DNA from: a virus
Taxonomy: Duplodnaviria > Heunggongvirae > Uroviricota > Caudoviricetes
DNA length: 64,000 nt
Reading direction: 5' to 3' (one strand)
IMG/VR virus record: IMGVR_UViG_3300033074_000961
Of this stretch, positions 3,725 to 57,274 are shown piece after piece. Made by a program: the position numbers and the translations under genes. The notes under the pieces are model-generated. The model had not been told where the DNA came from and did not search any database. It saw only the letters and a program-made list of their open reading frames with translations. How positions within the stretch are numbered: position 1 is the stretch's first letter; every line of letters starts with the position of its first letter.

Positions 3725-4540
3725 TCATTGTGGAATACGAACTCTGTGGACAGAACCCGGTCTTGTTGCTGCCGGTGGAGTGTAAACTAATTCATCACTA
3801 TAGACAGATTCAAGACCATTCGTAATATAAGCAGTAGCTGCATAGTAGGTGGGAATTCCTACAATGATGTTTGATAAAGTTATCGTCAACATTGCCTTGG
3901 CATCTACAACATTAGTATAGTTTCTACTTGACGGTCCAGAGTACACTTTATATTGAATGAACATGTTAGTGGAACTTGGGCTGGCATCCCACGCCAAAGT
4001 AACCTTTGCGTAAGTATTGGTTGAAGGCGGGAGATTTGTTATTGCATTAGCATAGATACAATAATTGAAATCAACGTTGCCACTCTGCATTGTTAGAGTC
4101 GTGGGCCATTGTCCATATGTTCTTGGCGAGCTTTCCCAACGAGTCGAACCACCACTTGTATTACAATATATTGCCGCTCCCTGTGTGTCAGACCATGAGG
4201 CAAACCAATAATACTGTCCATTAGTAAGAGAAACATTTGTCGCCAATGGCAATGAATACCAACCCGAAGACGGATTGGATATTTCTGAACTTTGTTGCAT
4301 CAATTGTGACGGACCAGAAGAATTTCCTGCATAGATTGCGAATTTGTATCTACCTGAAATACCAACAACTCGGGCATTTAGAGTAGAAATAGTCATGTTG
4401 GATGACGCTTGGAAACGAGACACATTGATATAGTTGTTAATTGGGTCGGAAGTAGTTCCGTTGCTATTATTTCCGATGAATGCATTAGCATTAACCACAA
4501 GGGTTAATAGAAATGAAATTGTTATCAGTAATGTTTTCAT
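3725..4540 (-). CDS. secreted hypothetical protein (N-terminal signal peptide, Asn/Ser/Thr-rich)
   Basis: MKTLLITISFLLTLVVNANA signal peptide. Confidence 0.5.
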   Translation of the reverse strand: MKTLLITISFLLTLVVNANAFIGNNSNGTTSDPINNYINVSRFQASSNMTISTLNARVVGISGRYKFAIYAGNSSGPSQLMQQSSEISNPSSGWYSLPLATNVSLTNGQYYWFASWSDTQGAAIYCNTSGGSTRWESSPRTYGQWPTTLTMQSGNVDFNYCIYANAITNLPPSTNTYAKVTLAWDASPSSTNMFIQYKVYSGPSSRNYTNVVDAKAMLTITLSNIIVGIPTYYAATAYITNGLESVYSDELVYTPPAATRPGSVHRVRIPQ

Positions 4541-4545
4541 AATGT

Positions 4546-5184
4546 TTATTCTCCGTATTTCTCAATTCCTTCTTGTCCAAAGCGGTTGAACAGTTTGTCC
4601 AAGTATGCTTGGGTTTTGATTTTGCACATCCAGATACCGCCTCTATGGGCACCCGTCTTCAATGTGCCTTTGCATACCACGCCCTCAGTAACAGGGTACT
4701 TGCCTGCCCTTACATCAGCAATGAATTGGTCCGTGAGGTTGCCAGTATAAACAACCTTGGGAGATATGATTTTGTATTTCTCACTTAGATTAACAAACTC
4801 TTGGGGTGATAGGAACTTCCTATTCTTATGCCCCACCATGATGTCAAAGCATACGAGACGCTGGGTTGGGTCATTGGGTTCATGCCATCCCGCAAAGGAT
4901 TGGTCGCCAAAGAACTCAAGGAAGGCGATGACTTCACGCTCATTGGGAAATTCACCCTCAATCAAGTCCACGAGGGGATTCTCAAAATGCTCATAGAAGT
5001 ATGGAATAGCAGGAGCGAGGAACGGATGCCCTTTATCAAACATCTGTGTGCGACTTCCAAACAAATGGAAACCTTTCTTGTTCGTGTACTTCACACGAAT
5101 GTTGCTGCCATCAAGCTTATCAAAGGCAATCATTGACTCCCGAGGAGCCTTGCCGCTTGGCATTATGGATGGATATTCAATCAT
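4546..5184 (-). CDS. RNA-ligase-family nucleotidyltransferase (KxDG motif I)
   Basis: AFDKLDGSNIRV matches ligase motif I (KxDGxN). Short, nucleotidyltransferase domain only. Confidence 0.5.
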   Translation of the reverse strand: MIEYPSIMPSGKAPRESMIAFDKLDGSNIRVKYTNKKGFHLFGSRTQMFDKGHPFLAPAIPYFYEHFENPLVDLIEGEFPNEREVIAFLEFFGDQSFAGWHEPNDPTQRLVCFDIMVGHKNRKFLSPQEFVNLSEKYKIISPKVVYTGNLTDQFIADVRAGKYPVTEGVVCKGTLKTGAHRGGIWMCKIKTQAYLDKLFNRFGQEGIEKYGE

Positions 5185-5777
5185 ACAAATGCTAATCCGT
5201 TTGTGTATTGTGGGTCATTGTCTGCGAACCCAACGTGCCCACGGTCCTCAACGAGTGTGGGTTTGTCATTGTGCATCAAGTAATGCTTATAGGCACGGTC
5301 ATACATCACGATGTACACCGCAGCGGCAAGGTTGGTGCAATGCCGTGTGGGTATCTTTACAAATCTGTGGCAGTGACGACGCATCACTGGTGGTATGCTG
5401 CCATCCTCGGGACCAAAGACGTACACTGCATCCTCGGGATGTTCAAAGTCCATCAAGCATTCGGAGTTGTCCACCAACTCAATTGCTACTGGTGTAATAC
5501 CTTTACCAAAATGCTCAAAGGGATAGTCAAACTGACGCAATTCAACATCCTTATATCCCTTGAGACGTTCCTCTCTTGGAAGTCGTTGTCCTTCATCCAG
5601 ACGCACACGATTACCAGTCCACCACACTTGCTTGAAACCAAAGCACGATGCTGCCCGTTGTACCGCACCTACGTTGGCAGAGTACTTGGGATTACATAAA
5701 ATCACGGCAGGGACAATCCCCTCGGGTTTACTATTCTTTCCGTATATGGCAGCAGCATTCATATGTCGTAGGCACAC
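5181..5777 (-). CDS. SPOUT (SpoU/TrmH-family) RNA 2'-O-ribose methyltransferase
   Basis: VYVFGPEDGSIP plus HCTNLAAAVYIVMYDR (TrmH motifs 2 and 3); N-terminal NVGAVQRAASCFG. Overlaps the ligase gene by 4 nt. Confidence 0.6.
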   Translation of the reverse strand: MCLRHMNAAAIYGKNSKPEGIVPAVILCNPKYSANVGAVQRAASCFGFKQVWWTGNRVRLDEGQRLPREERLKGYKDVELRQFDYPFEHFGKGITPVAIELVDNSECLMDFEHPEDAVYVFGPEDGSIPPVMRRHCHRFVKIPTRHCTNLAAAVYIVMYDRAYKHYLMHNDKPTLVEDRGHVGFADNDPQYTNGLAFV

Positions 5778-5971
5778 TCACGGGTGCAATCAGGACAGCA
5801 GGTACAATGAGGGTCGGTATTACCAGACATCTCTTCCGAGTAAGGACAGGAATGTGGTTCGCTTGCGGGATTACGCTTGCACCTTTTGCAGAGGTCTTTT
5901 TCTTCTTTGACTTCGCTATCCATATTGTGCCAGTTCTTTTTCCAACAGTTCTTTGTATTCGTTGTGGTCAA
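5759..5971 (-). CDS. small Cys-rich hypothetical protein
   Basis: CKRCKRN...CTCCPDC pattern. Confidence 0.3.
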   Translation of the reverse strand: MTTTNTKNCWKKNWHNMDSEVKEEKDLCKRCKRNPASEPHSCPYSEEMSGNTDPHCTCCPDCTRECAYDI

Positions 5972-6152
5972 GCAGTGCTTTGACCGCTTCGTTCAAAGTA
6001 TCTGCCAACTTCTTGCGCTCGTCGTCATCGTGCAACCCAAGAGCAATCTTGGTGTTGTCCACTTCGACATCTACATCGCAATACTTGGCAAGGTTTCGGA
6101 CTGTAATTGTCATACGTAATGTCGCCATCCACCCTTGGAGTTTGGTTGCCAT
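5916..6152 (-). CDS. hypothetical protein
   Basis: Charged, helical 78-aa ORF. Confidence 0.3.
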   Translation of the reverse strand: MATKLQGWMATLRMTITVRNLAKYCDVDVEVDNTKIALGLHDDDERKKLADTLNEAVKALLDHNEYKELLEKELAQYG

Positions 6153-6307
6153 CCAAGTTCTGTAAGGCGAGCGGTTTTTTCTTCGTCGTACTTCGTTACA
6201 TCAAGTCCGGCGATGATGACATCGTGCTCGGCACTGATGATGGTTGCTGGTTCTACGGACTTCACTATCTGAAGTCCCTCAATGATTAAGTCTAAAGTTG
6301 AGTGCAT
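6110..6307 (-). CDS. hypothetical protein
   Basis: ORF in a run of same-strand genes. Confidence 0.25.
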   Translation of the reverse strand: MHSTLDLIIEGLQIVKSVEPATIISAEHDVIIAGLDVTKYDEEKTARLTELGWQPNSKGGWRHYV

Positions 6308-6311
6308 ATGT

Positions 6312-6647
6312 TTATCCTAACGCCCAATTACAAATCCCCATGAACTCTCGGGGTTTCTCGTCCTCGGGCAAAAATCGCCATTCTCGTTTTTCGGTATCCC
6401 ATGCCCACCACTGTTCAGAGTGGACCATTGGGTGAATACCGGGTTCAATGTATTCCATTACCACATAGTCATACAAACACTCTTCAATGTTGCCACGGTT
6501 CTCTTTGACCGCAGTGTACGCTTCATTGTAGGTCGGATAGAATCCGAAAGTGCGCTTGCGAGAAAGGTATCGTTTATGGACACCGTATTCTTTCGCTTGC
6601 TTTTCCAGCGTTTCTTTACCAATGATTGATGTTATGAACCACGGCAT
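6312..6647 (-). CDS. hypothetical protein
   Basis: 111-aa ORF. Confidence 0.4.
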   Translation of the reverse strand: MPWFITSIIGKETLEKQAKEYGVHKRYLSRKRTFGFYPTYNEAYTAVKENRGNIEECLYDYVVMEYIEPGIHPMVHSEQWWAWDTEKREWRFLPEDEKPREFMGICNWALG

Positions 6648-40243: not shown

Positions 40244-40577
40244 AAGGGATTAGTTTATAGTCATAGTCTTCTATGATATGGGGAGTTTCCCACGAAGACC
40301 ATTCATTACAGGTGACAACTTCATAGATACCATCTTTGCACTCATCAAGGTTGATGATGTTTTTGACTACTTCATCAGCACCAGCATTATGACAATCTTC
40401 ATAGAGAAGATTATATCCTTGGCATTTGCGCCGAAGATAACGGAGGGTTTTCTTGATATGTATTCCACTCCCGTCGTGCCATACCGAAGTTGTAAGTCGG
40501 ACAACACACTTGGGCGGGGGTTCTTTATACTTGGCAACCAAGTCATCAAAGGTTAGTGCTGTGATTTCTTTGCTCAT
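40203..40577 (-). CDS. hypothetical protein
   Basis: 124-aa ORF. Confidence 0.35.
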   Translation of the reverse strand: MSKEITALTFDDLVAKYKEPPPKCVVRLTTSVWHDGSGIHIKKTLRYLRRKCQGYNLLYEDCHNAGADEVVKNIINLDECKDGIYEVVTCNEWSSWETPHIIEDYDYKLIPYEETTPLRPVDGK

Positions 40578-41176
40578 CGGGCAACTACTTTGATGAAGTA
40601 GGTTAGTTCAATCTTCTCACCCACCGTAGAGGATACATCCTTGATAAGTTGACCTATCGTAACCGTATCCTCACGGACAAAGGGTTGATTGAGCAGACAT
40701 ATCTGGTTCACTCGCTTCTGAATTTTTCCTTGAATGATCTTGTCCCGCACCGGAGCAGGTTTGCCCTCCGTCTCACGGATGTATTCACTTGCCCACTTCA
40801 AGCGAACATCCTCTGGAATGGACTCCATAGAGATGTACTCGGGAGCAACAGGAGCAGAGACAATATGCATACAGATATTTTTTGCCAATGTAATGAAGGC
40901 ATCACTCTTGGCAACGAAGTCGGTCTGACATGCAAGCACAATCATTGCGCCAACACGGTTGTTGTGGACGTAAGAGTACACAATCTTGGTGTTGGCAGTG
41001 CGATTCGCCATCTCATTGGCATCTGCTTGCTTCTCGGCAATCAGAATCTTGACCGCTTCCGCCTCATCACCATTCGCTCGTTGAAGAGCTTCGTTGATCT
41101 TATTGATAGGTGAAAAGGTGATAGCACGGATATGCTTTACCTTCTCCACATTGGTCATTGTCTTTTCAACATTCAT
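40574..41176 (-). CDS. tsf: translation elongation factor Ts (EF-Ts)-like protein, short form
   Basis: N-terminal UBA-like VKHIRAITFSPINKINEALQ...AEAVKILIAE, core LACQTDFVAKSDAF (compare EF-Ts CETDFVA+N..F), C-terminal LLNQPFVREDTVTIGQLIKD. Confidence 0.55.
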   Translation of the reverse strand: MNVEKTMTNVEKVKHIRAITFSPINKINEALQRANGDEAEAVKILIAEKQADANEMANRTANTKIVYSYVHNNRVGAMIVLACQTDFVAKSDAFITLAKNICMHIVSAPVAPEYISMESIPEDVRLKWASEYIRETEGKPAPVRDKIIQGKIQKRVNQICLLNQPFVREDTVTIGQLIKDVSSTVGEKIELTYFIKVVAR

Positions 41177-41864: not shown

Positions 41865-42656
41865 TCATTTTGGATATTCAGGTATCATTGCAAGGATTTT
41901 ATCCTTATCTTCGGTAAACTTCCACGCACCCTTGGAAACCCATCTAGTGCGCTCAACGGTGTTGTCTTGAATTTGAGCTTCAAAACTCTCTTTCACAATG
42001 AGACGCCCGTTCTTCTCACCATCGGTGTAATCCGTGGCCCAGTTCTTACCCGCTTGGTGAATCATCTCATGCTTGTCCGAAGTGGACTTGCCGTGAAGCT
42101 CCTTGTGCGAGTACAGGGATTGAGCAACCATTGAGACAGAGTTGCGAGCACAATCTTGATTACGCCAGATGAAGTAGTTCATCACTTCAACTCTGTCAGG
42201 AATGGTGAATACACGGGCATCAAAGAATGCCAGATGCTTTCGCATCCTCGCTTCTTTCAAATCCATTGGCAGTGTTTGAGTAATCTTAAACGCTCTCTCA
42301 AGCCGACATTGATTGAATTCCGCAGTCATGATAGATGCCGCCACAGAACACATTTTCTGTAGGTTGCCGTCAAACCATGCACAAGTACCAATGTCAACGA
42401 AGTCGGTCAAAAGTACACTGATCTCGTCAGATTGGGTATAGGCGAAGACCGCCCCCTGAAGTTCTGGGAGCATCGCAATGATTGCGGCGTCAATGTCCTC
42501 AAAGAGTCCTTTGTCAAAAGGTTTCTCAAGTCCTCGGGTGTACGTATGAAATGCCTTACCATCCAGACGGATGATTGTGTAAGTGCGTCTTGGCAGTAAG
42601 AACCGAGTACGGTCCTCATACTGCCCCTTCATTCTGTCGCCAAGTGCGTCTTGCAT
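41865..42656 (-). CDS. Thg1-like protein (tRNA-His guanylyltransferase / 3'-5' nucleotide polymerase family)
   Basis: RLDGKAFHTYTRGLEKPFD, AYTQSDEISVLL, FFDARVFTIP, NYFIWRNQDCARNSVSM follow the Thg1 family motif pattern. Confidence 0.6.
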   Translation of the reverse strand: MQDALGDRMKGQYEDRTRFLLPRRTYTIIRLDGKAFHTYTRGLEKPFDKGLFEDIDAAIIAMLPELQGAVFAYTQSDEISVLLTDFVDIGTCAWFDGNLQKMCSVAASIMTAEFNQCRLERAFKITQTLPMDLKEARMRKHLAFFDARVFTIPDRVEVMNYFIWRNQDCARNSVSMVAQSLYSHKELHGKSTSDKHEMIHQAGKNWATDYTDGEKNGRLIVKESFEAQIQDNTVERTRWVSKGAWKFTEDKDKILAMIPEYPK

Positions 42657-46185: not shown

Positions 46186-47193
46186 TTACTTTCCAGCGAT
46201 GGGTTTCATGCCCGAACGATGGCGTCCGAACACCTTTTTACGCAACTCCACAATTGTATCACAAAGGTCTTCCTTGCCATACTGCGGACGGGAGTTCACG
46301 TCTCGTGCAATCAATCGCTTAATGAATGCACACATTTCTTCGGGTACATCTTTAGGCACCATCTTACGCTCAACGTATTCTGGACCACCCGATAAAGCAT
46401 AAATCATCGTCATTCCAAGACTGTAATAGTCAGACTCGGGAATGAGGGGTTTGCCAGCTATTTCTTCGGGAGGGGCAAAGTAAGGAGTGAACCCCTTTGC
46501 TTCGGCAGAACCCGTGGGTTTCACCATTGACAAACCGAAGTCCACCAGAACTGCCATGTGCCTATCCTCTTGCACGATGATATTCTGGGGTTTCAAATCG
46601 CCATGCACCACGCCATGACGATGAATGTAATTAAGAGCATTGAGGATTCTTTCAGTAATCCACGCAACGGTTTCTGGTTCCATTGCTCCTACTCGTTTCA
46701 CTTCTTTCTCAAGAGTGAGACCGGGAATGTAGCTCATGACGAGCAGTACCCGTCCATCTTCCAACTTATACAAATCCCTCATGGCGGGGAGAGCGTAGTG
46801 TCTCAAATCCCACAACACTCGGCACTCTTGAACAAGCATATCCACATCATCCAAAGAGACGTTAGAGCAGTCTTTGATACAGACCAATTCTTTGAGAATG
46901 GAATGCTCTGCTTTGTAGGTGCGACCAAACCCGCCTTCGGCAATAACAGATTGAACTTTGTAAGGTCCAATTATCTTGGTAGTGCCTTCGATACGTTCAC
47001 GGTCAAAATCACGACGCTTACGGGGGTCGGTAAGAATGTCATGTGCTTCGTTGAGGGAACGGGCATGAGACCCCACAGTGGCATGGTCTAAATCAGGATG
47101 ATGTTCCTTCATTAGTGCCCGATATGCCGCCTCAATCACTGAGGGACTTGCTTTCGGGTGGACTTGGAGGACTTGATACCAGTCGTTTTTCAT
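46186..47193 (-). CDS. J-domain (DnaJ) – Ser/Thr protein kinase fusion
   Basis: N-terminus DWYQVLQV...MKEHHPD (J domain with HPD). Kinase HRHGVVHGDLKPQNII, DFG, APE-like PPE. Confidence 0.65.
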   Translation of the reverse strand: MKNDWYQVLQVHPKASPSVIEAAYRALMKEHHPDLDHATVGSHARSLNEAHDILTDPRKRRDFDRERIEGTTKIIGPYKVQSVIAEGGFGRTYKAEHSILKELVCIKDCSNVSLDDVDMLVQECRVLWDLRHYALPAMRDLYKLEDGRVLLVMSYIPGLTLEKEVKRVGAMEPETVAWITERILNALNYIHRHGVVHGDLKPQNIIVQEDRHMAVLVDFGLSMVKPTGSAEAKGFTPYFAPPEEIAGKPLIPESDYYSLGMTMIYALSGGPEYVERKMVPKDVPEEMCAFIKRLIARDVNSRPQYGKEDLCDTIVELRKKVFGRHRSGMKPIAGK

Positions 47194-50957: not shown

Positions 50958-52514
50958 TTACACCACAACACGGTCGTAACGAGGATTGTTCACCGTCTCG
51001 TAAACGATGTCCATAGGACTGAAGCTCTTCGCTGAGAGCAGCGACTTCAAGATGCTTGGTGAGCATCCCGAGACAAGGGCAGTGCCATTGTCGTCCGCAC
51101 GGATTGGGAAGTTATCGTTGCGGGAGGCAACGTTCCACCACACGATGCGAGGCAGCGTGTATCCATGCTTCTCGTACTTCTCACGGATGACTTGGAAGTT
51201 GGTCTTGCTGTTGCAACCCGAGGCTGCATCAAACTCCATGTCGGAGACCACATAGAGAACGCTTGGCATATCCTTTGCCGCAACACGGTTCTGCACCGCA
51301 GTACGGAGGATAAGGTCAAACGCAGACTGGAGATTCGTGGACTGAGCCCAGTTGGACTTGTCCATGTTATCCCACTTCTCAAGCAAGGTTTGTCCAACCA
51401 ACTTTTGGAAGGTTGGCGAGCTGGAGAAGTTCATCCAGAAGTCCTTGAAAGGACCAACGTTACGCTCTGCGAAGTAAATCGCAAGCGAGACCGACACGAG
51501 AATTGGCAGCATGTCATGGGTGAACATGGAGCCAGACACGTCGGCAATAACAATACCATAGTGCTCGTTACCTTCCAGCCAGTTTGGCATGGACTTCCAT
51601 TGCAGGTCTGCCTGCTTTGCGCTCATGGCGTCTGGACGACCATGCATGACGATGGAACGCAGGATTTCGTATGGGAATACGGCACCGGCATTCATCTTCT
51701 TCTCGCCCTTCTCAACGGACTTGAGATAGGCAGCGTAACGCTCCTGATCGTGCTTACCGAACGCCTTGCGGTAGTTCAGCGAAGCCTTGGAAGGAACGTG
51801 CTCGAAGTCAATCTTGGCCCAGTCGCCAGCGCACATCTTGACTTCAAGTACATCAATGTGCTTACGCAGCGCAGAGAGAATCTTGCGGTAACGCTTTGGA
51901 GTCAGTTCAAGAGCCTCACGGGTCTTGCGAGCAAGACGACGGGACTCCGCAGAACTGGTGTTCTCGGACTTGAGCCACTTGGCAAGCAGCGAGACGGACT
52001 CGCCCTTCTTCATGTTCTTGAGGTCTGCCTTCAACTGGGTAGCGAAAAGGGCATAGACTTCCGACTCAAGTGGGGTTCCCACGAGAGCATAGAGGTCATC
52101 ATAGCGTCCGAAGAACGCCACGTTCTCAAGGTTCTTGCGAGCAACGTCGGTGTAGTTCTGGGCGAGCCAGTTCACCAACGTACGGAAGGTCTTACGCTCT
52201 CCCTGTCCCTCACGTACGTCACGGAGGTAGAACAGAATCTTGGTAGCCAAGAGACGGTCCTGTGCAAATGCACGGGAGAAAAGATTGATTACGTCCTGCT
52301 CGGCACGAGAGCGGATTGCTCCACCAGCACCGAAGAAGTCGAGGACATAGTTGAGCGTGCTCTTGTTGGTCAGAGCACCCTTCTCGGTATAACCGAGATT
52401 TCCCTGATTCTGCATAGCAGACAGGAATGGGTTCTGTGAGAGCACAGTGGTTTGAGGCACAAACTGAGTTGAGCGGGTCTTACGAGTCACGTTCTTCATA
52501 ACGGTTCCTTTCAT
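50958..52514 (-). CDS. TROVE-like N-terminal domain + C-terminal vWA protein (Ro60/Rsr-like or DUF2828-type)
   Basis: C-terminal MIDAS IVIADVSGSM. N-terminal GYTEKGALTNKST...LDFF and REGQGERKTFRTLVNWL resemble TROVE motifs. Confidence 0.45.
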   Translation of the reverse strand: MKGTVMKNVTRKTRSTQFVPQTTVLSQNPFLSAMQNQGNLGYTEKGALTNKSTLNYVLDFFGAGGAIRSRAEQDVINLFSRAFAQDRLLATKILFYLRDVREGQGERKTFRTLVNWLAQNYTDVARKNLENVAFFGRYDDLYALVGTPLESEVYALFATQLKADLKNMKKGESVSLLAKWLKSENTSSAESRRLARKTREALELTPKRYRKILSALRKHIDVLEVKMCAGDWAKIDFEHVPSKASLNYRKAFGKHDQERYAAYLKSVEKGEKKMNAGAVFPYEILRSIVMHGRPDAMSAKQADLQWKSMPNWLEGNEHYGIVIADVSGSMFTHDMLPILVSVSLAIYFAERNVGPFKDFWMNFSSSPTFQKLVGQTLLEKWDNMDKSNWAQSTNLQSAFDLILRTAVQNRVAAKDMPSVLYVVSDMEFDAASGCNSKTNFQVIREKYEKHGYTLPRIVWWNVASRNDNFPIRADDNGTALVSGCSPSILKSLLSAKSFSPMDIVYETVNNPRYDRVVV

Positions 52515-53599
52515 ATACTTTCTGTTGTTCGGGTTTGTTCAAGATACATACGTGTTATCACGAGATAGCTGTTCGTATCTTCAACGAAAATACTACTAGA
52601 TGCAGCCCTTGACGTTGGCAACCTGCATTAAGCGTTCCTGCTGTACGCATCTAAAATTGGGCTAGGTCCAGACGTTTACTGTTCGTCCTCAGAGCACTAT
52701 GAGATTTCTCCTAACTGAATAGGTGGAGTATGCCAGTATCTCCGTTCTTTTTTCATGGTTAGATGAATTTAGTTTTGTTGCTGTACGGACCTAAATTGAT
52801 TGTAGCGTTGGTATCGGCATTTACCTTACCGAAAGTCCCTTTTTCACGGACTAACACTACGAAATTCAAAGAACAATCTACAAATTCAAGGGGTTTCAGT
52901 AAAGAAACCCCAAACAAGATGTCAGGATTTACCGTTGTCTCGGTGGCGTGTTTACGTCTGCCCTTGACGAGTGCTCCGAAAACTAACTCTCTATCGGGCA
53001 CTACTCCGAGGTCTTTTGGGACCGGGAACCACCCCGTAGTCTTGTCAACCGTTGACTGGACGGTTTGCTGCAAAGTCAATTGGTTACACAGTGCAGCCGC
53101 TTGTTCTCTTTTTTCTTTTATTTATGTCTTGCTGTGACGACATCTTAATTCAGCAAACCACTCGGTCTGCCGAAAGTTTGAAAGAACAACGAGATGCCTT
53201 TGCTTTTTCAATAGCGTATGCTGTACGCATCTCAAATCATTGTGGCGAGAAGTATATCACACTCGCCGAAATTGTCAAGCCCTACTTCAAACTTTTTTCA
53301 ACAGAGTTTGTTTTGGGTCCAAGTAGGTAATGGCGTCATCCAATTCAAGTTGAGCGTCCACGACCTTACTGGCAAACAACGCATTGTGATTCTTTCCGCT
53401 ATTCAGGCGCAAAGCATCACCCATCAAACGGTCTGCTTCGAGCAGGAGCGAATGAATCTTACGAGCACGTTGTTTATCGTTCATTGTGGAGCAAACAATA
53501 CCACAATACTGTGAACTTGTCAAGAGGGATTTTAGCGTTCTCTCTTATTGGGAGACTTCGGGTCTCTGAGGATAAGTATATGCCAAAAACCAAAAACGA

Positions 53600-54385
53600 T
53601 TATTTTTTCGTTTTTCTTTGAGAGTATGGTTTGTCCACATTATGCAAGTTCTGTTCTGCACACACCCGCTCGACATCATTCGAAATTGATTGAAGTCTCT
53701 GCTTTGCTAATTCGACATAAGTATCGTTAACTTCAATGCCCACGTAGTTATGGTCCATTGCTGCCGCAGCAACAAGAGTGGTGCCGATACCGCAGTAAGG
53801 GTCAAGCACGTTCAATCCTCTGCGTTCATCGGCAATGCTGTAAATACAACGCACTGGTAATTCAATAGGAAATGGTGCGGGATGTTCCTTGAATCCACTC
53901 TCGGGGCGGATACGCCAAATGGAAGTCATCTTGGCATGTCTGCTTTCCAGTTCATCACCTTTGGTCAATCCCTTTTGCATCCAATAGATTCTTTCTTCAA
54001 CTTGCCAGAATCTCCATCCTCTTACGTTGCCAGCAATGATTCTATCCCAAATGAGTTCTTGGCGAATGCCCCACATGGTTTTGTTCAACCAATCCAACGG
54101 ATGAATCATCTTACCATCTTGCCAACGGAGTTTGTGGTTGTAGAAGATATGCCCTCCCGGCTTGGTGACTCTCCACAACTGGTCCAACACTTGCACTTGC
54201 TGCTTCTGATACTCTTCTTCGGGCATGTTATCAGAGTGAACACCATATTCAACTTTGCCCACCAACTCCCCCGATACTTTCTGCTTATTGTATGGCGGCG
54301 AGGTAACGGTGATGTCAAAAAAGTCATCCTCAAACTGCCGCAGTACAGTAACAGCATCCCCAACGTAAATCTTGTTGTTATCCAT
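53600..54385 (-). CDS. DNA methyltransferase, β-class amino-MTase (SPPY motif IV before FxGxG motif I); N4-C or N6-A
   Basis: VTSPPY then DPYCGIGTT. Confidence 0.65.
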   Translation of the reverse strand: MDNNKIYVGDAVTVLRQFEDDFFDITVTSPPYNKQKVSGELVGKVEYGVHSDNMPEEEYQKQQVQVLDQLWRVTKPGGHIFYNHKLRWQDGKMIHPLDWLNKTMWGIRQELIWDRIIAGNVRGWRFWQVEERIYWMQKGLTKGDELESRHAKMTSIWRIRPESGFKEHPAPFPIELPVRCIYSIADERRGLNVLDPYCGIGTTLVAAAAMDHNYVGIEVNDTYVELAKQRLQSISNDVERVCAEQNLHNVDKPYSQRKTKK

Positions 54386-54454: not shown

Positions 54455-55276
54455 GTGGCATACTCGTGGGCGATGATACAATTGTTCAACGAGGACTTCC
54501 TCAAGGCAGATTTTACTTCCATCCCACCAATCAATTTGGTGGTAACGTCCCCGCCGTACAATGTAGGCATTGAATATGACAAGCATGACGACACAATGAC
54601 CTATGAGGAATATCTTGTTTGGTGCAAAAAGTGGATTGCTAAGCTTTATTCATTGATGGCGGATGACAGTCGTATCTGCATAAACATTCCATTCTCCATT
54701 ACACCGATTCACTTGAATAAAGTCAAGGGTGCCGAGGACATCAACTACCCCGTATCAGCAGACTACACCGAAATCTGTCAGGAAGTAGGATTCAAATACT
54801 ATCGTAATGTCATATGGCAGAAGTTAGGAAGCAATAAGACGTGTTGGGGAAGTTGGCGGTCTGCCCGTGCTCCTTTCATCATTGACCCCAACGAGTGTAT
54901 CCTTATCTTTTACAAGGGGAATTGGAAGCGAAAAGAAAAGGGCAAGTCCACCATTCGTGGTCGTGAATTCATGACTTATGTAAAGAATCTGTGGCACATG
55001 CATCCCGAGACACAATCCAAGCATCCCGCAGCCTTTCCGTTGGAACTACCGAATAGGTGTATCAAACTTCTATCCTATGAAGGAGACCTTGTGTGTGACC
55101 CATTCTTAGGGTCTGGCACAACAGGCGATGCCGCAGTCAGATTGAAGAGAAGTTTTGTAGGTGTGGAGAAGAGCGAAGAGTATTTCAAAATGGCAAAAGA
55201 AAGGATTGATACAGCAGAAATTCAAACTTCTTTGATTGCATCAATCATGCCAGATGGTGACGAAGATGATGATTGA
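54455..55276 (+). CDS. DNA methyltransferase, β-class amino-MTase (second SPPY enzyme)
   Basis: VTSPPYNVG then CDPFLGSGTT. Confidence 0.65.
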   Translation: MAYSWAMIQLFNEDFLKADFTSIPPINLVVTSPPYNVGIEYDKHDDTMTYEEYLVWCKKWIAKLYSLMADDSRICINIPFSITPIHLNKVKGAEDINYPVSADYTEICQEVGFKYYRNVIWQKLGSNKTCWGSWRSARAPFIIDPNECILIFYKGNWKRKEKGKSTIRGREFMTYVKNLWHMHPETQSKHPAAFPLELPNRCIKLLSYEGDLVCDPFLGSGTTGDAAVRLKRSFVGVEKSEEYFKMAKERIDTAEIQTSLIASIMPDGDEDDD

Positions 55277-56336
55277 ACCAAATCTGTTCTACGAGAAAGG
55301 ACTGATTCATGCCAGAGGACACCACGATCCTGTCGGAAAGTGTTTGACCTTGTTGGCAGGTTCGCAGGGCGTTGTTTGCTCTAATCCACGAAGCGTTTTC
55401 TTCGGATGTCCCGAAATTCAAAAGGAATACGAACGAAATATCCTCAACAGTACGGCGAGTGCTGGTAATGATACTCAGTACTATCTTCAAAAAGACGTAA
55501 AGTGTTATGCCACTGATAACCGAGATGAACTTGATGTTGCGGCATCTCTTATTGCGGGTGCATTGATGAAGGGCGATACGTTGTGGAGAAATAAGGACGG
55601 AATGAGTATGAGGCAAATTCGTTCTACTCTACTCATCGAAGCTCCTGTTGAAAATTCAGATGAAGATATTCAACGATTCAATGCCGCAGCAACTCGGGCA
55701 TTTAACATACTTTCGGCAGACCGAGATGGAATGATTGACATTTTATCGAAGGCATGGCACTTCAAACAAATTCTTGGCACTAAGAACGAAGACCGATTCA
55801 TTATTCCCCGACAAGTGGACCACGGGATTGCTAAACTTTTCAACCTTCTCTGTGAAGAGGAAGAAGCATATGACCTTTCCATCCCTACAGATGGATATAC
55901 AATTTCTGACAAGATGGCAAACGACCTGTTCCACCAAAGCACGAGTAAAAAAGTCAGAAGTGGTATCATCAAGGACAATCTTCAAATGTCCAATACTCGT
56001 TCAGGTCAATCCAGCAACAATCACCAACGTCCACGGTTCGATTGCTTGCTTGCCATGCAGTACATCCCCTATTTGGTATGTGGAATTGTGCCCTACCACA
56101 AAATTGTATCACATTTCCGTCATACCGATGGGGGATGGGTATTGAAGAGAGTTCCCATAGACCATTTCCAATACATTCTCTCTCCCACCGAAACAATTCC
56201 TCCCCAAGACATCTCCCCCGACGATAAAGCGGAGATGGAAAACTTTGCACAACTAGTTAAGGGAGAGTTTTTTCCGAAACTCCTTGACAAACGACCAAAA
56301 AAAGCGGATACTACGCCGCAAATTGAAGTATGGTGA
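55263..56336 (+). CDS. hypothetical protein between methyltransferase genes
   Basis: 366-aa ORF. Start trimmed to the Met past the upstream stop. Confidence 0.4.
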   Translation, partial: KMMIEPNLFYEKGLIHARGHHDPVGKCLTLLAGSQGVVCSNPRSVFFGCPEIQKEYERNILNSTASAGNDTQYYLQKDVKCYATDNRDELDVAASLIAGALMKGDTLWRNKDGMSMRQIRSTLLIEAPVENSDEDIQRFNAAATRAFNILSADRDGMIDILSKAWHFKQILGTKNEDRFIIPRQVDHGIAKLFNLLCEEEEAYDLSIPTDGYTISDKMANDLFHQSTSKKVRSGIIKDNLQMSNTRSGQSSNNHQRPRFDCLLAMQYIPYLVCGIVPYHKIVSHFRHTDGGWVLKRVPIDHFQYILSPTETIPPQDISPDDKAEMENFAQLVKGEFFPKLLDKRPKKADTTPQIEVW

Positions 56337-57274
56337 AACCGAAGACGAAACTTACTCCTGTCCGCTACCCCGGCGGCAAGTCCAACGCTTTGAAGTTCTT
56401 GGACAAGCACCTACTGCGTTCATTTTCCACCTACCGTGAACCATTCTTTGGTGGTGGGTCTGTCGGTCTCTACCTGATGCAGTTCAACAAGGATGCAGTC
56501 TATTGGGTCAACGACTTGTTCTATCCCGTGTACTGTTTCTGGAAGGTTCTCTACGAGCGTCCCGATGAAATGGTGAAGTATCTCCTTGCTCGTCATGAGA
56601 CGTATTCCAAACCGCAAAGCGGGATTGCTGGACAAGACATAAAGGTAAAAGGAGTGCCTACCAAGGCTGCCGAAGCTGCTCGGGCACTACATGCATTCTG
56701 CCGCCAGCAAATTCAAATCAATATCGAACAGAAGGACGAGTTTCATACCGCTTGCCATTGGTATATCCTCAACAAGACTTCATACTCAGGTATGGCAATG
56801 ATTGGTTCATATGCGCCTCTTGCATGGGACCAGAACTTCACCATCAATTGCATCAACAATCTTCCCAAGACCACCGCACTTATGCGGAGCGTAAAGGAAG
56901 TTCGCATTACCAATTTGGATTATGCCGACATGCTGAAACCCGATGGCGACCACGACGAGAATACGTTTGTATTTCTCGACCCGCCCTACAAAATCCCCCA
57001 CAGTCTCTACGGGGATGGTGGAGACATGCATGAAGGATTTGACCATCGCCGTTTCTATGAGGAAGTCATCAAGTGTCCAACTCGCTGGTTGATTACCTAT
57101 AACAAAGACCCTGAAATTGACGCATGGTTCTTAGGATACCATAAACTCCCGTGGGAACTTCAGTACACCATGAAGGCGGCAAAGCGTGAGGGGCAAGAAG
57201 GGTCTGCCAAAACTGGCAAATCAGGTAAGAAGGGACGAGAGTTATTGATAGCAAACTATCCGCTTACAGCCTGA
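56330..57274 (+). CDS. dam: Dam-type (α-class, D12) DNA N6-adenine methyltransferase
   Basis: YPGGK, EPFFGGGSV (motif I), FLDPPY (motif IV). Confidence 0.7.
   Translation: MVKPKTKLTPVRYPGGKSNALKFLDKHLLRSFSTYREPFFGGGSVGLYLMQFNKDAVYWVNDLFYPVYCFWKVLYERPDEMVKYLLARHETYSKPQSGIAGQDIKVKGVPTKAAEAARALHAFCRQQIQINIEQKDEFHTACHWYILNKTSYSGMAMIGSYAPLAWDQNFTINCINNLPKTTALMRSVKEVRITNLDYADMLKPDGDHDENTFVFLDPPYKIPHSLYGDGGDMHEGFDHRRFYEEVIKCPTRWLITYNKDPEIDAWFLGYHKLPWELQYTMKAAKREGQEGSAKTGKSGKKGRELLIANYPLTA

Follow-up and report, generated by a model that had tools for sequence, protein, structure and literature searches.

The region at positions 52515-53599 of a 64,000-nucleotide (nt) stretch of DNA from a virus of the class Caudoviricetes (IMG/VR record IMGVR_UViG_3300033074_000961; the whole stretch is called the window below) appears to hold five small structured RNAs, paralogues of one another, arrayed on the minus strand. 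These RNAs would be Y-RNA-like partners of a divergent phage Ro60 protein encoded beside them, and one copy would serve as an autoregulatory element in the 5' untranslated region (5' UTR) of the protein's own gene; we put the probability of this reading as a whole at roughly 0.6. That the modules are functional structured RNAs tied to the gene is very probable, and they are probably direct partners of the Ro60-like protein, because the module recurs beside the same gene across hundreds of phages. A previous inspection of the letters alone (the sequence-only reading) had placed the region between the Ro60-like gene (50958-52499, minus strand) and a DNA methyltransferase gene (53600-54385, minus strand), which is indeed where it lies, and since the flanking genes are all on the minus strand, the region was read on that strand. 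The same reading proposed one or more structured non-coding RNAs next to the Ro60-like gene, a proposal now supported by covarying arms in more than 100 relatives, by model matches that all lie on the gene strand, by YrlA-like interiors in some phages, and by the Ro60 fold of the neighbouring protein.

The thrice-repeated motif on which that proposal was built is borne out: the 17-nt pattern TGCTGTACGSAYCTMAA has exactly three sites in the window, all on the plus strand (52639-52655, 52779-52795, and 53219-53235, the same sites as repeat family D1), and it occurs nowhere else in the 64 kb, the chance expectation from 100 shuffles of the window being 0. Its minus-strand form is UUU(A/G)AG(A/G)U(G/C)CGUACAGCA, and in each of the three copies the 7-8 nt preceding GUACAGCA are perfectly complemented downstream (GAGAUGC with GCAUCUC, UAGGUCCG with UGGACCUA, and UAGAUGCG with UGCAUCUA). 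As the complements are perfect but differ among the three copies, the paralogues themselves already show compensatory changes. The motif marks the 5' part of a module with the layout xAG plus 4-6 variable nt, 1-3 nt, CAGCA, an interior of 18-205 nt, and the complement of the arm plus CUx'G. The module's own 5' and 3' ends form a closing stem of 7-9 base pairs (bp), in which an A-U and a G-C pair (xAG...CUx') are invariant and after which comes a G; the CAGCA(A) is unpaired, 1-3 nt after the 5' arm and, in 178 of 192 modules, 8-9 nt beyond the AG; the strand preceding the 3' arm is A-rich; and the interior is interchangeable.

A strict descriptor of this layout (xAG + N4-8, 0-4 nt, CAGCA, 8-160 nt, complementary arm + CUx'G) matches the window three times when both strands, 128 kb in all, are searched (0.36 matches expected), and all three matches are on the minus strand within the region. 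Allowing interiors of up to 300 nt adds a fourth copy (53146-52915, AAGAUGUCG...UGACAUCUUG), and a fifth, in which CAGCU replaces CAGCA, belongs to the family through a covariance model and its conserved position. The three motif sites therefore stand, but the underlying modules number five rather than three, every one of them on the minus strand; they are arranged in tandem 40-734 nt upstream of the Ro60-like gene, in its orientation. Less stringent patterns were discarded: any 7-bp stem near CAGCA gave 29 window matches against 12 in shuffles and was useless, and a relaxed core with 300-nt interiors gave 18 against 13, so that only the five contiguous copies were accepted.

All five modules are given here in minus-strand order, with L-numbers denoting the loci of relatives. 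Module 1 (53190-53233) is the minimal form, GAGAUGC-gua-CAGCA-21 nt-GCAUCUCG; it fits the strict descriptor, scores 47.9 bits with the covariance model (this copy was in the seed), retains its closing stem in the minimum free energy (MFE) fold, and is kept in L089, L001, L097, and L098 with differing arms. An 11-bp hairpin between modules 1 and 2 (53149-53174, minus strand; fold z = -3.8) shows compensatory A-to-U and U-to-A changes relative to L089. Module 2 (52915-53146) is long, AAGAUGUCG-uca-CAGCA-205 nt of structured interior-UGACAUCUUG, fits the strict descriptor once a longer interior is allowed, and likewise retains its closing stem in the MFE fold; in an alignment with L089, L090, L091, and L003, 12 of its 43 predicted pairs have compensatory changes. 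It includes the GCUGCA/UGCAGC stem, which the sequence-only reading had taken, together with a T-run at 53065-53125, for a plus-strand terminator. The stem is real, with a compensatory GCUACA/UGUAGC in the closest relative, L089, but the plus-strand terminator is not supported: it is missing from the output of the terminator scan, the loop is 17 nt, the stem belongs to module 2 on the minus strand and covaries as RNA, and the only plus-strand frames that end upstream of it are mechanical, non-conserved open reading frames (ORFs). The 8-bp hairpin GGGGTTTC...GAAACCCC noted earlier is present at 52890-52911, where the terminator scan places a minus-strand, intrinsic-terminator-like site; it lies 3 nt past module 2, is followed by UUGAAUUUGU, and is identical in L089. 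Its T-run is weak, and read-through is therefore plausible.

Beyond this hairpin, a small three-way structure without the CAGCA motif, element F (52802-52860, minus strand), has a fold z of -3.3; the overlapping interval 52801-52866 is 88% identical to L001, with a compensated closing stem (GUGUU/AACGC vs GUGGU/ACCGC), and L089 has an unrelated hairpin in its place. Module 3 (52662-52793) is long, UAGGUCCG-ua-CAGCA-108 nt-UGGACCUAG, its interior comprising two hairpins and a pseudoknot. In alignment A4 (11 sequences), these hairpins, a short helix, and the pseudoknot GGCAU/GUGCU are 95% paired, with nine covarying pairs when the pseudoknot is counted in, a number reached by none of 500 shuffles. 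A 156-nt stretch spanning module 3 is 96.8% identical to L001, though the proteins are only 78% identical. Module 4 (52596-52653) is short, UAGAUGCG-ua-CAGCA-34 nt-UGCAUCUAG, fits the strict descriptor, and scores 36.7 bits (again a seed copy); in its homologues the arms covary (GAUAUG/CAUAUC in L002, GAUAC/GUAUC in L090) and the interior GGUUGCCAACGUCARGGGC is conserved. Both of the nested palindromes described earlier are found here, AGATGC (52598-52603) with GCATCT (52647-52652), which belongs to the module 4 arms, and ATGCAG (52600-52605) with CTGCAT (52624-52629); the inner one is not kept in module 4 homologues and is therefore probably incidental or an alternative fold. Module 5 (52540-52581), AAGAUACG-aa-CAGCU-18 nt-UGUAUCUUG, lies in the 5' UTR of the Ro60-like gene; although outside the model seed, it is the third-best covariance-model match in the whole window (21.0 bits, E = 0.027), and close relatives also hold a module at this position, with different but complementary arms.

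The compensatory changes in modules 2 and 3, together with the identity across module 3, show selection on the nucleotide sequence. The conservation in relatives that had been suggested as a check is thus seen, the modules being kept with compensatory changes, and the comparison with L001, in which nucleotide conservation exceeds that of the neighbouring gene, is the opposite of the decay expected of a degenerate remnant. In L089, whose Ro60-like protein is 94% identical, the modules are conserved and both the GCUGCA/UGCAGC stem and the inter-module hairpin are compensated, yet units are swapped relative to the window, with a different module 4 and a different small hairpin. It seems that the intergenic array exchanges units.

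A blastn search of the locus against INPHARED phages found no match, and relatives were therefore reached via the protein. Across 70 distinct viral loci, the strict descriptor gave 188 matches on the gene strand against two antisense (shuffles, 0-3), concentrated in the 500 nt upstream of the gene and the 750 nt downstream. Because a first covariation count (A3) was circular, its sequences having been selected for pairing, an arm permutation, a covariance model, and an independent set of loci were used. The 5' motif alone matched 245 times in sense and 72 times in antisense orientation; 133 of the 245 sense matches have their own complement within 300 nt, whereas permuted arms gave 12 (maximum 19). 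With the covariance model, built from 28 short modules, all 108 matches at E ≤ 0.01 in 77 viral loci fell on the gene strand, and in the model-based alignment of 106 distinct matches the stem is 99.7% paired (slid controls, 32-44%), with 142 double-change cells and covariation at six of seven pairs. The independent set, 80 loci of GTDB genomes, likewise had all 47 of its model matches on the gene strand, mostly just upstream or downstream of the gene. Within the inner stem extension, G-U combinations outnumber A-C by 24 to 6, which indicates RNA on the gene strand. Of 62 loci, 43 have a module whose end lies at most 60 nt upstream of the start codon, and in several of these the 3' arm runs straight into the Shine-Dalgarno sequence.

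The surroundings of the modules vary among phages. ARAGORN detects no tRNA or tmRNA in the 64-kb window. In L089 a tRNA-Thr(AGU)-like gene of unusual length (89 nt) separates the promoter from module 1 (L089:2280-2368), several other relatives have modules 1-10 nt from a tRNA 3' end, and in some phages a tmRNA gene lies within 2 kb upstream of the Ro60-like gene (L016:736-1148, L018:949-1337). Other conserved, structured-looking elements of about 100 nt share the same intergenic array in some relatives (L001:4335-4440 and L004:4575-4680; L002:4590-4680 and L003:4500-4590), with the sequences GAGUGUCAGGAGC...GGCACUC and GUGAUGGCAUCUWAGAUGCACC..., neither of which is found in the window. Listeria phage 805405-1 (P100-like; L110) has three modules (2154-2418) upstream of its Ro60-like gene and, 1.3 kb downstream of it, a gene for an RtcB-type RNA ligase (5352-6488), an arrangement that echoes the bacterial rsr-yrlA-rtcBA operon. 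Within the window, a spacer UUGUUCUUU(C/G)AA occurs at 52865-52876, after the terminator, and at 53178-53189, after module 1 (plus-strand coordinates), and at equivalent places in L001-L004; AAUUU precedes most modules. Both spacers may be processing sites.

The gene with which the modules travel encodes a protein of 513 amino acids (aa) with Pfam matches to DUF2828 and DUF7788 and to phrog_850 ('RNA-binding protein'); PADLOC found nothing. Its AlphaFold2 model, made with 49 homologues, has a mean predicted local distance difference test score (pLDDT) of 77.8 and a predicted template modelling score (pTM) of 0.75. When this model was compared with the PDB by Foldseek, the best ten matches were all Ro60/TROVE structures (Xenopus, human, and the Thermus phage phiLo), followed by von Willebrand factor A (vWA) domains; the Ro60 matches are full-length, with E values of 1.5e-7 to 3.7e-5 over 515-587 aligned columns. 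The predicted structure has a helical-repeat ring followed by a vWA domain, and a DxSxS motif (D320, S322, and S324), as found in the metal-ion-dependent adhesion sites (MIDAS) of vWA domains, is invariant. The label 'Ro60-like' thus holds for the fold, though not for a sequence-level TROVE match, and since Ro60 folds match where TROVE and PDB sequences do not, the DUF2828/DUF7788 protein is a distant structural homologue of Ro60 rather than a member of the sequence-level family. Carriers of this family number 711 INPHARED phages, at least 572 IMG/VR stretches, and 440 stretches in GTDB genomes; the INPHARED carriers include Felixounavirus, Listeria, Staphylococcus, Enterococcus, Campylobacter, and Vibrio phages as well as cluster L mycobacteriophages, in which the gene is annotated "Ro-like RNA binding protein".

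From this combination we infer how the modules would be transcribed, processed, bound, used in autoregulation, and employed downstream. The Ro60-like protein would bind the conserved stem/CAGCA handle, and the variable interiors would be cargo that tethers or decoys other factors, as Y RNAs do for Ro60; candidates for such cargo are the structured interiors of modules 2 and 3 and, in the modules of other phages, a tRNA-like domain. Two sigma-70-like promoters on the minus strand, duplicated copies that correspond to repeat families D2/D6, are predicted within the region: P1 (53495-53523, TTGACA-17-TATTGT, TG-extended, 10/12 consensus), before a small ORF, and P2 (53251-53278, TTGACA-16-TATACT, TG-extended, 11/12), a strong promoter roughly 20 nt before module 1. 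P2 probably drives modules 1 and 2, whose transcript would end at the hairpin at 52890-52911, whereas modules 3, 4, and 5 would be on a transcript that reads into the gene, probably via read-through of the weak terminator. The array could then be cut at the conserved AU-rich spacers, and with module 5 in the 5' UTR the protein may feed back on its own translation.

Several observations weigh against this interpretation. At the level of sequence, TROVE gives no Pfam match for the Ro60-like protein even at E ≤ 10 (DUF2828 and DUF7788 only), phmmer against PDB sequences returns nothing relevant, and the structural similarity to Ro60 is moderate (template modelling scores 0.44-0.56, 12-17% identity). 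As for the RNAs, the search against the Rfam Y_RNA and YrlA models that had been proposed as a check came out negative: no family reaches the gathering threshold in the whole window, and at E ≤ 10 within 52300-53800 only a chance CC0734 match appears, with neither Y_RNA (RF00019) nor YrlA (RF02553). The window's RNAs have no GGUCCGA bulged helix, GNCGAA, or CGAA, their conserved motif being the AG...CU pairs plus CAGCA, and the tRNA-like domain seen in some relatives is not found in them by ARAGORN on the window or Rfam on the region. In folding, another suggested check, the thermodynamic signal of single modules is weak (z -0.2 to -2.4). In the window, 40 nt separate the end of module 5 from the start codon and the ribosome-binding site is left uncovered, which makes direct translational occlusion less obvious. 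Finally, genomic linkage would be expected too if RNA and protein merely share a pathway.

An alternative is that the modules act only in cis, within a long precursor or mRNA, as hairpins for processing, stability, or insulation and as an operator of translation, with no free small RNAs accumulating and no stable ribonucleoproteins (RNPs) forming with the Ro60-like protein. Modules 3-5 do lie on the gene's leader, with no recognisable promoter after the weak terminator; conserved AU-rich spacers part the modules (AAUUU before each, and UUGUUCUUU at the two places given above); and other phages have modules interspersed with tRNA genes, a setting in which one expects processing signals. However, a 7-9-bp stem combined with an unpaired, invariant CAGCA and a large structured interior, in one case with a pseudoknot and in some with tRNA-like domains, goes well beyond a processing hairpin, modules are also found downstream of the gene and after a promoter/terminator pair of their own, and they are linked to one protein family across very different genome contexts. 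A solely cis-acting role therefore appears unlikely.

In bacteria, YrlA RNAs bind the Ro60 orthologue Rsr through a handle with the motif GNCGAAN0-1G (Chen et al. 2014, PMC4201824). The window's RNAs resemble YrlA in being small RNAs that are encoded at most a few kb from a Ro60-type gene, share its strand, and often come in several copies, and in having 5' and 3' ends that form a stem with a short conserved motif near the 5' end and a modular interior. They differ from it in having CAGCA(A) and AG/CU pairs, in lacking an RF02553 match, and in their partner, a DUF2828/DUF7788 protein without a TROVE sequence match. Thus, what is expected of a Y RNA as regards its proximity to a Ro60-type gene on the same strand is seen in all five modules, whereas a terminal stem with a known Ro60-binding motif is not, the stem being present and covarying but its motif different. 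Rfam on 17 related loci recovered tRNA and tmRNA only and no family for the module. Yet the interiors of some long modules in distant phages are the same permuted tRNA-like domain as that of YrlA (T arm, stem, D arm): those of LeBron, L086, L064, and others enclose such a domain, and the YrlA model scores 39.8 bits (E = 1.7e-7) for LeBron 4019-4140, 43.8 for L086, and 35.4 for L064, with E values from 1.7e-7 to 4e-4 and all below the gathering threshold of 69 bits. On this basis, the YrlA cargo domain appears to occur on a different handle in these phages. In Mycobacterium phage LeBron (L109), three modules lie directly downstream of gp53 (3952-4199), with arms UGG...CCAG rather than xAG...CUxG, and the YrlA-like domain sits in the middle one.

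A parallel among phages is phiLo, whose Ro60 protein binds a pair of Y-RNA-like RNAs (Yrl1 and Yrl2) with a CGAA motif, encoded just upstream of its gene, and forms an RNP that recruits host PNPase (PMC12135203). Both systems combine a phage ring-plus-vWA protein with tandem Y-RNA-like genes immediately upstream, and two of the top three structural matches for the window's protein are phiLo structures (PDB 9KOP and 9L5Y); however, phiLo encodes a recognisable Ro60 homologue, to which the window's protein is 16-17% identical, and its RNAs carry CGAA in a large internal bulge, whereas the system described here has another RNA motif. With metazoan Y RNAs and Ro60 (PDB 1YVP and 1YVR), whose handle is GGUCCGA (PMC4201824), the modules share a terminal stem as the (here predicted) protein-binding site and a variable loop domain for other partners. 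Module 3, with UAGGUCCGUA / UGGACCUAG, is reminiscent of the GGUCCGA helix, but no bulged C helix is predicted, no Rfam Y_RNA match is obtained, and GGUCCG is confined to the module 3 subtype, other modules having GAUGCG or GAUACG. Autoregulatory mRNA mimics of RNA ligands are a principle familiar from ribosomal-protein operators. Similarly, the present loci place a copy of the presumed recognition element in the 5' UTR of the protein's own mRNA, often against the Shine-Dalgarno sequence; the likeness is an analogy only, and in the window module 5 ends clear of the ribosome-binding site.

Bas63 gp130 belongs to the same protein family as the window's protein (40% identity over 92% of the query). 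It is reported to resemble Ro60 structurally and to counter the ppl defence system, and the authors guessed that nearby tRNA genes might be Y RNAs, the RNA partner not being identified (PhageMaP preprint, PMC11482910). In this phage (Escherichia phage JohannRWettstein/Bas63; L087), four stem/CAGCA modules lie between annotated tRNA genes, at 4718-4784, 4885-4942, 5340-5407, and 5427-5552, which makes the spacers, rather than the tRNAs, the candidate partners. The last two overlap a minus-strand 'hypothetical protein' coding sequence, bas63_0137, which may be mis-called for that reason. Neither stem/CAGCA RNAs nor a partner RNA of DUF2828/DUF7788 proteins is described in Rfam or the literature searched, although some cluster L mycobacteriophage copies may stand as YrlA in the tables of Chen et al. 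2014. It is also possible, though we hold this only tentatively, that the stem/CAGCA is the recognition element of a second branch of Ro60 proteins, the DUF2828/DUF7788 branch, which sequence searches leave unlinked to the first, and whose RNPs would share a handle while their cargo is interchangeable.

The Bas63 result also bears on whether the modules are real small RNAs that serve as decoys or sponges for a host factor, their direct ligand, for instance an exoribonuclease of the PNPase type, a defence nuclease, or a tRNA enzyme, with the Ro60-like protein working in the same pathway but not recognising the stem/CAGCA. Consistent with such a role, the Bas63 homologue counters ppl (PMC11482910), interiors are tRNA-like in some relatives, the gene family is found in tRNA/tmRNA arrays and, in the Listeria phage, 1.3 kb from the RtcB-type RNA ligase gene, and the window encodes a Thg1-like tRNA repair enzyme. 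However, it is the stem/CAGCA, not the interior, that is conserved in all lineages, and its occurrence follows the phage protein, not host taxonomy (phages of Mycobacterium, Listeria, and E. coli); moreover, the 5' UTR copy in most loci is what would be expected of the encoded protein's own ligand. A host factor as the direct ligand is thus quite improbable. Strongly disfavoured is a reading of the repeats as DNA-level elements (phage promoters, operators, or sites of recombination) or as functionless relics of tRNA or other genes in decay. In its favour, the motif follows -10-like CAAT/TACAAT sequences, two duplicated promoter copies lie in the region, and L089 carries a tRNA that the window lacks. 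Against it, the 64 kb contain no further copy of the motif, the variable half of the motif covaries with a complement at a distance of 20-230 nt, which a DNA-binding palindrome would not need, strand asymmetry is absolute, G-U is preferred over A-C, and the nucleotide conservation above that of the neighbouring gene is the reverse of decay.

The preferred reading, an array of RNA partners of the Ro60-like protein, does not account for the whole region. The sequence-only reading had seen no convincing ORF on either strand, which is true of most of the region but not of about 200 nt, where a conserved protein-coding gene of 65 aa (53287-53484, minus strand) with its own promoter, P1, lies inside the supposedly non-coding DNA. 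In tblastn searches its product is conserved in five distinct relatives, with identities of 97% (L089), 59% (L093), 48% (L002/L007), and 46% (L091/L099), and a gene is called at the equivalent place in L089; the protein has no match in Pfam, PHROG, or PADLOC. The gene's promoter and first bases (CCACAAUGA) are duplicated before module 1, where the reading frame is lost (AUGAUUUGA). Three further ORFs were rejected: 52763-53137 (plus strand), 52759-53079 (minus strand), and 53218-53514 (plus strand) have no Pfam family matches, and 1-nt indels in L089 break the first two.

The window as a whole derives from a large virulent phage with rIIA/rIIB, DNA ligase, and thymidylate synthase genes. On the minus strand it also encodes an EF-Ts homologue (40574-41176), the Thg1-like protein of the tRNA-His guanylyltransferase family (41865-42656; Pfam E = 4.7e-27), and a fusion of a DnaJ domain with a protein kinase (46186-47193). 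Three DNA methyltransferase genes are clustered just past the RNA array (53600-54385, minus strand; 54455-55276, plus strand; 56330-57274, plus strand), of which the first two are both of the N6_N4 type and divergently transcribed. This wider context fits a role in RNA metabolism or counter-defence.

To our knowledge, Ro60-Y RNA particles have been known in animals, bacteria, and a few phages, and only where the protein is recognisable as TROVE. What is new here is a divergent Ro60 accompanied by a widespread set of predicted Y-RNA-like RNAs whose handle differs from those known. DUF2828/DUF7788 proteins are far commoner in phages, and one member, Bas63 gp130, counters bacterial defence. A searchable RNA signature gives candidate partners in tractable phages, namely, the Felixounavirus Bas63, P100-like Listeria phages, and cluster L mycobacteriophages, and it suggests that the Y-RNA design of a protein-binding handle with swappable cargo can ride on a different handle. 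Some small 'hypothetical protein' genes between phage tRNA genes overlap modules and may therefore be mis-called. If a second Ro60 branch is indeed represented by the DUF2828/DUF7788 proteins, it would be widespread in phages of Gram-negative, Gram-positive, and actinobacterial hosts; the cargo of its RNPs would be tRNA-like, pseudoknotted, or minimal and would attract host RNA enzymes or defence nucleases or act as a decoy for them, and protein levels would be set through the handle copy in the 5' UTR. The missing RNA partner of Bas63 gp130 would then be supplied, and the question would become testable in cultured model phages.

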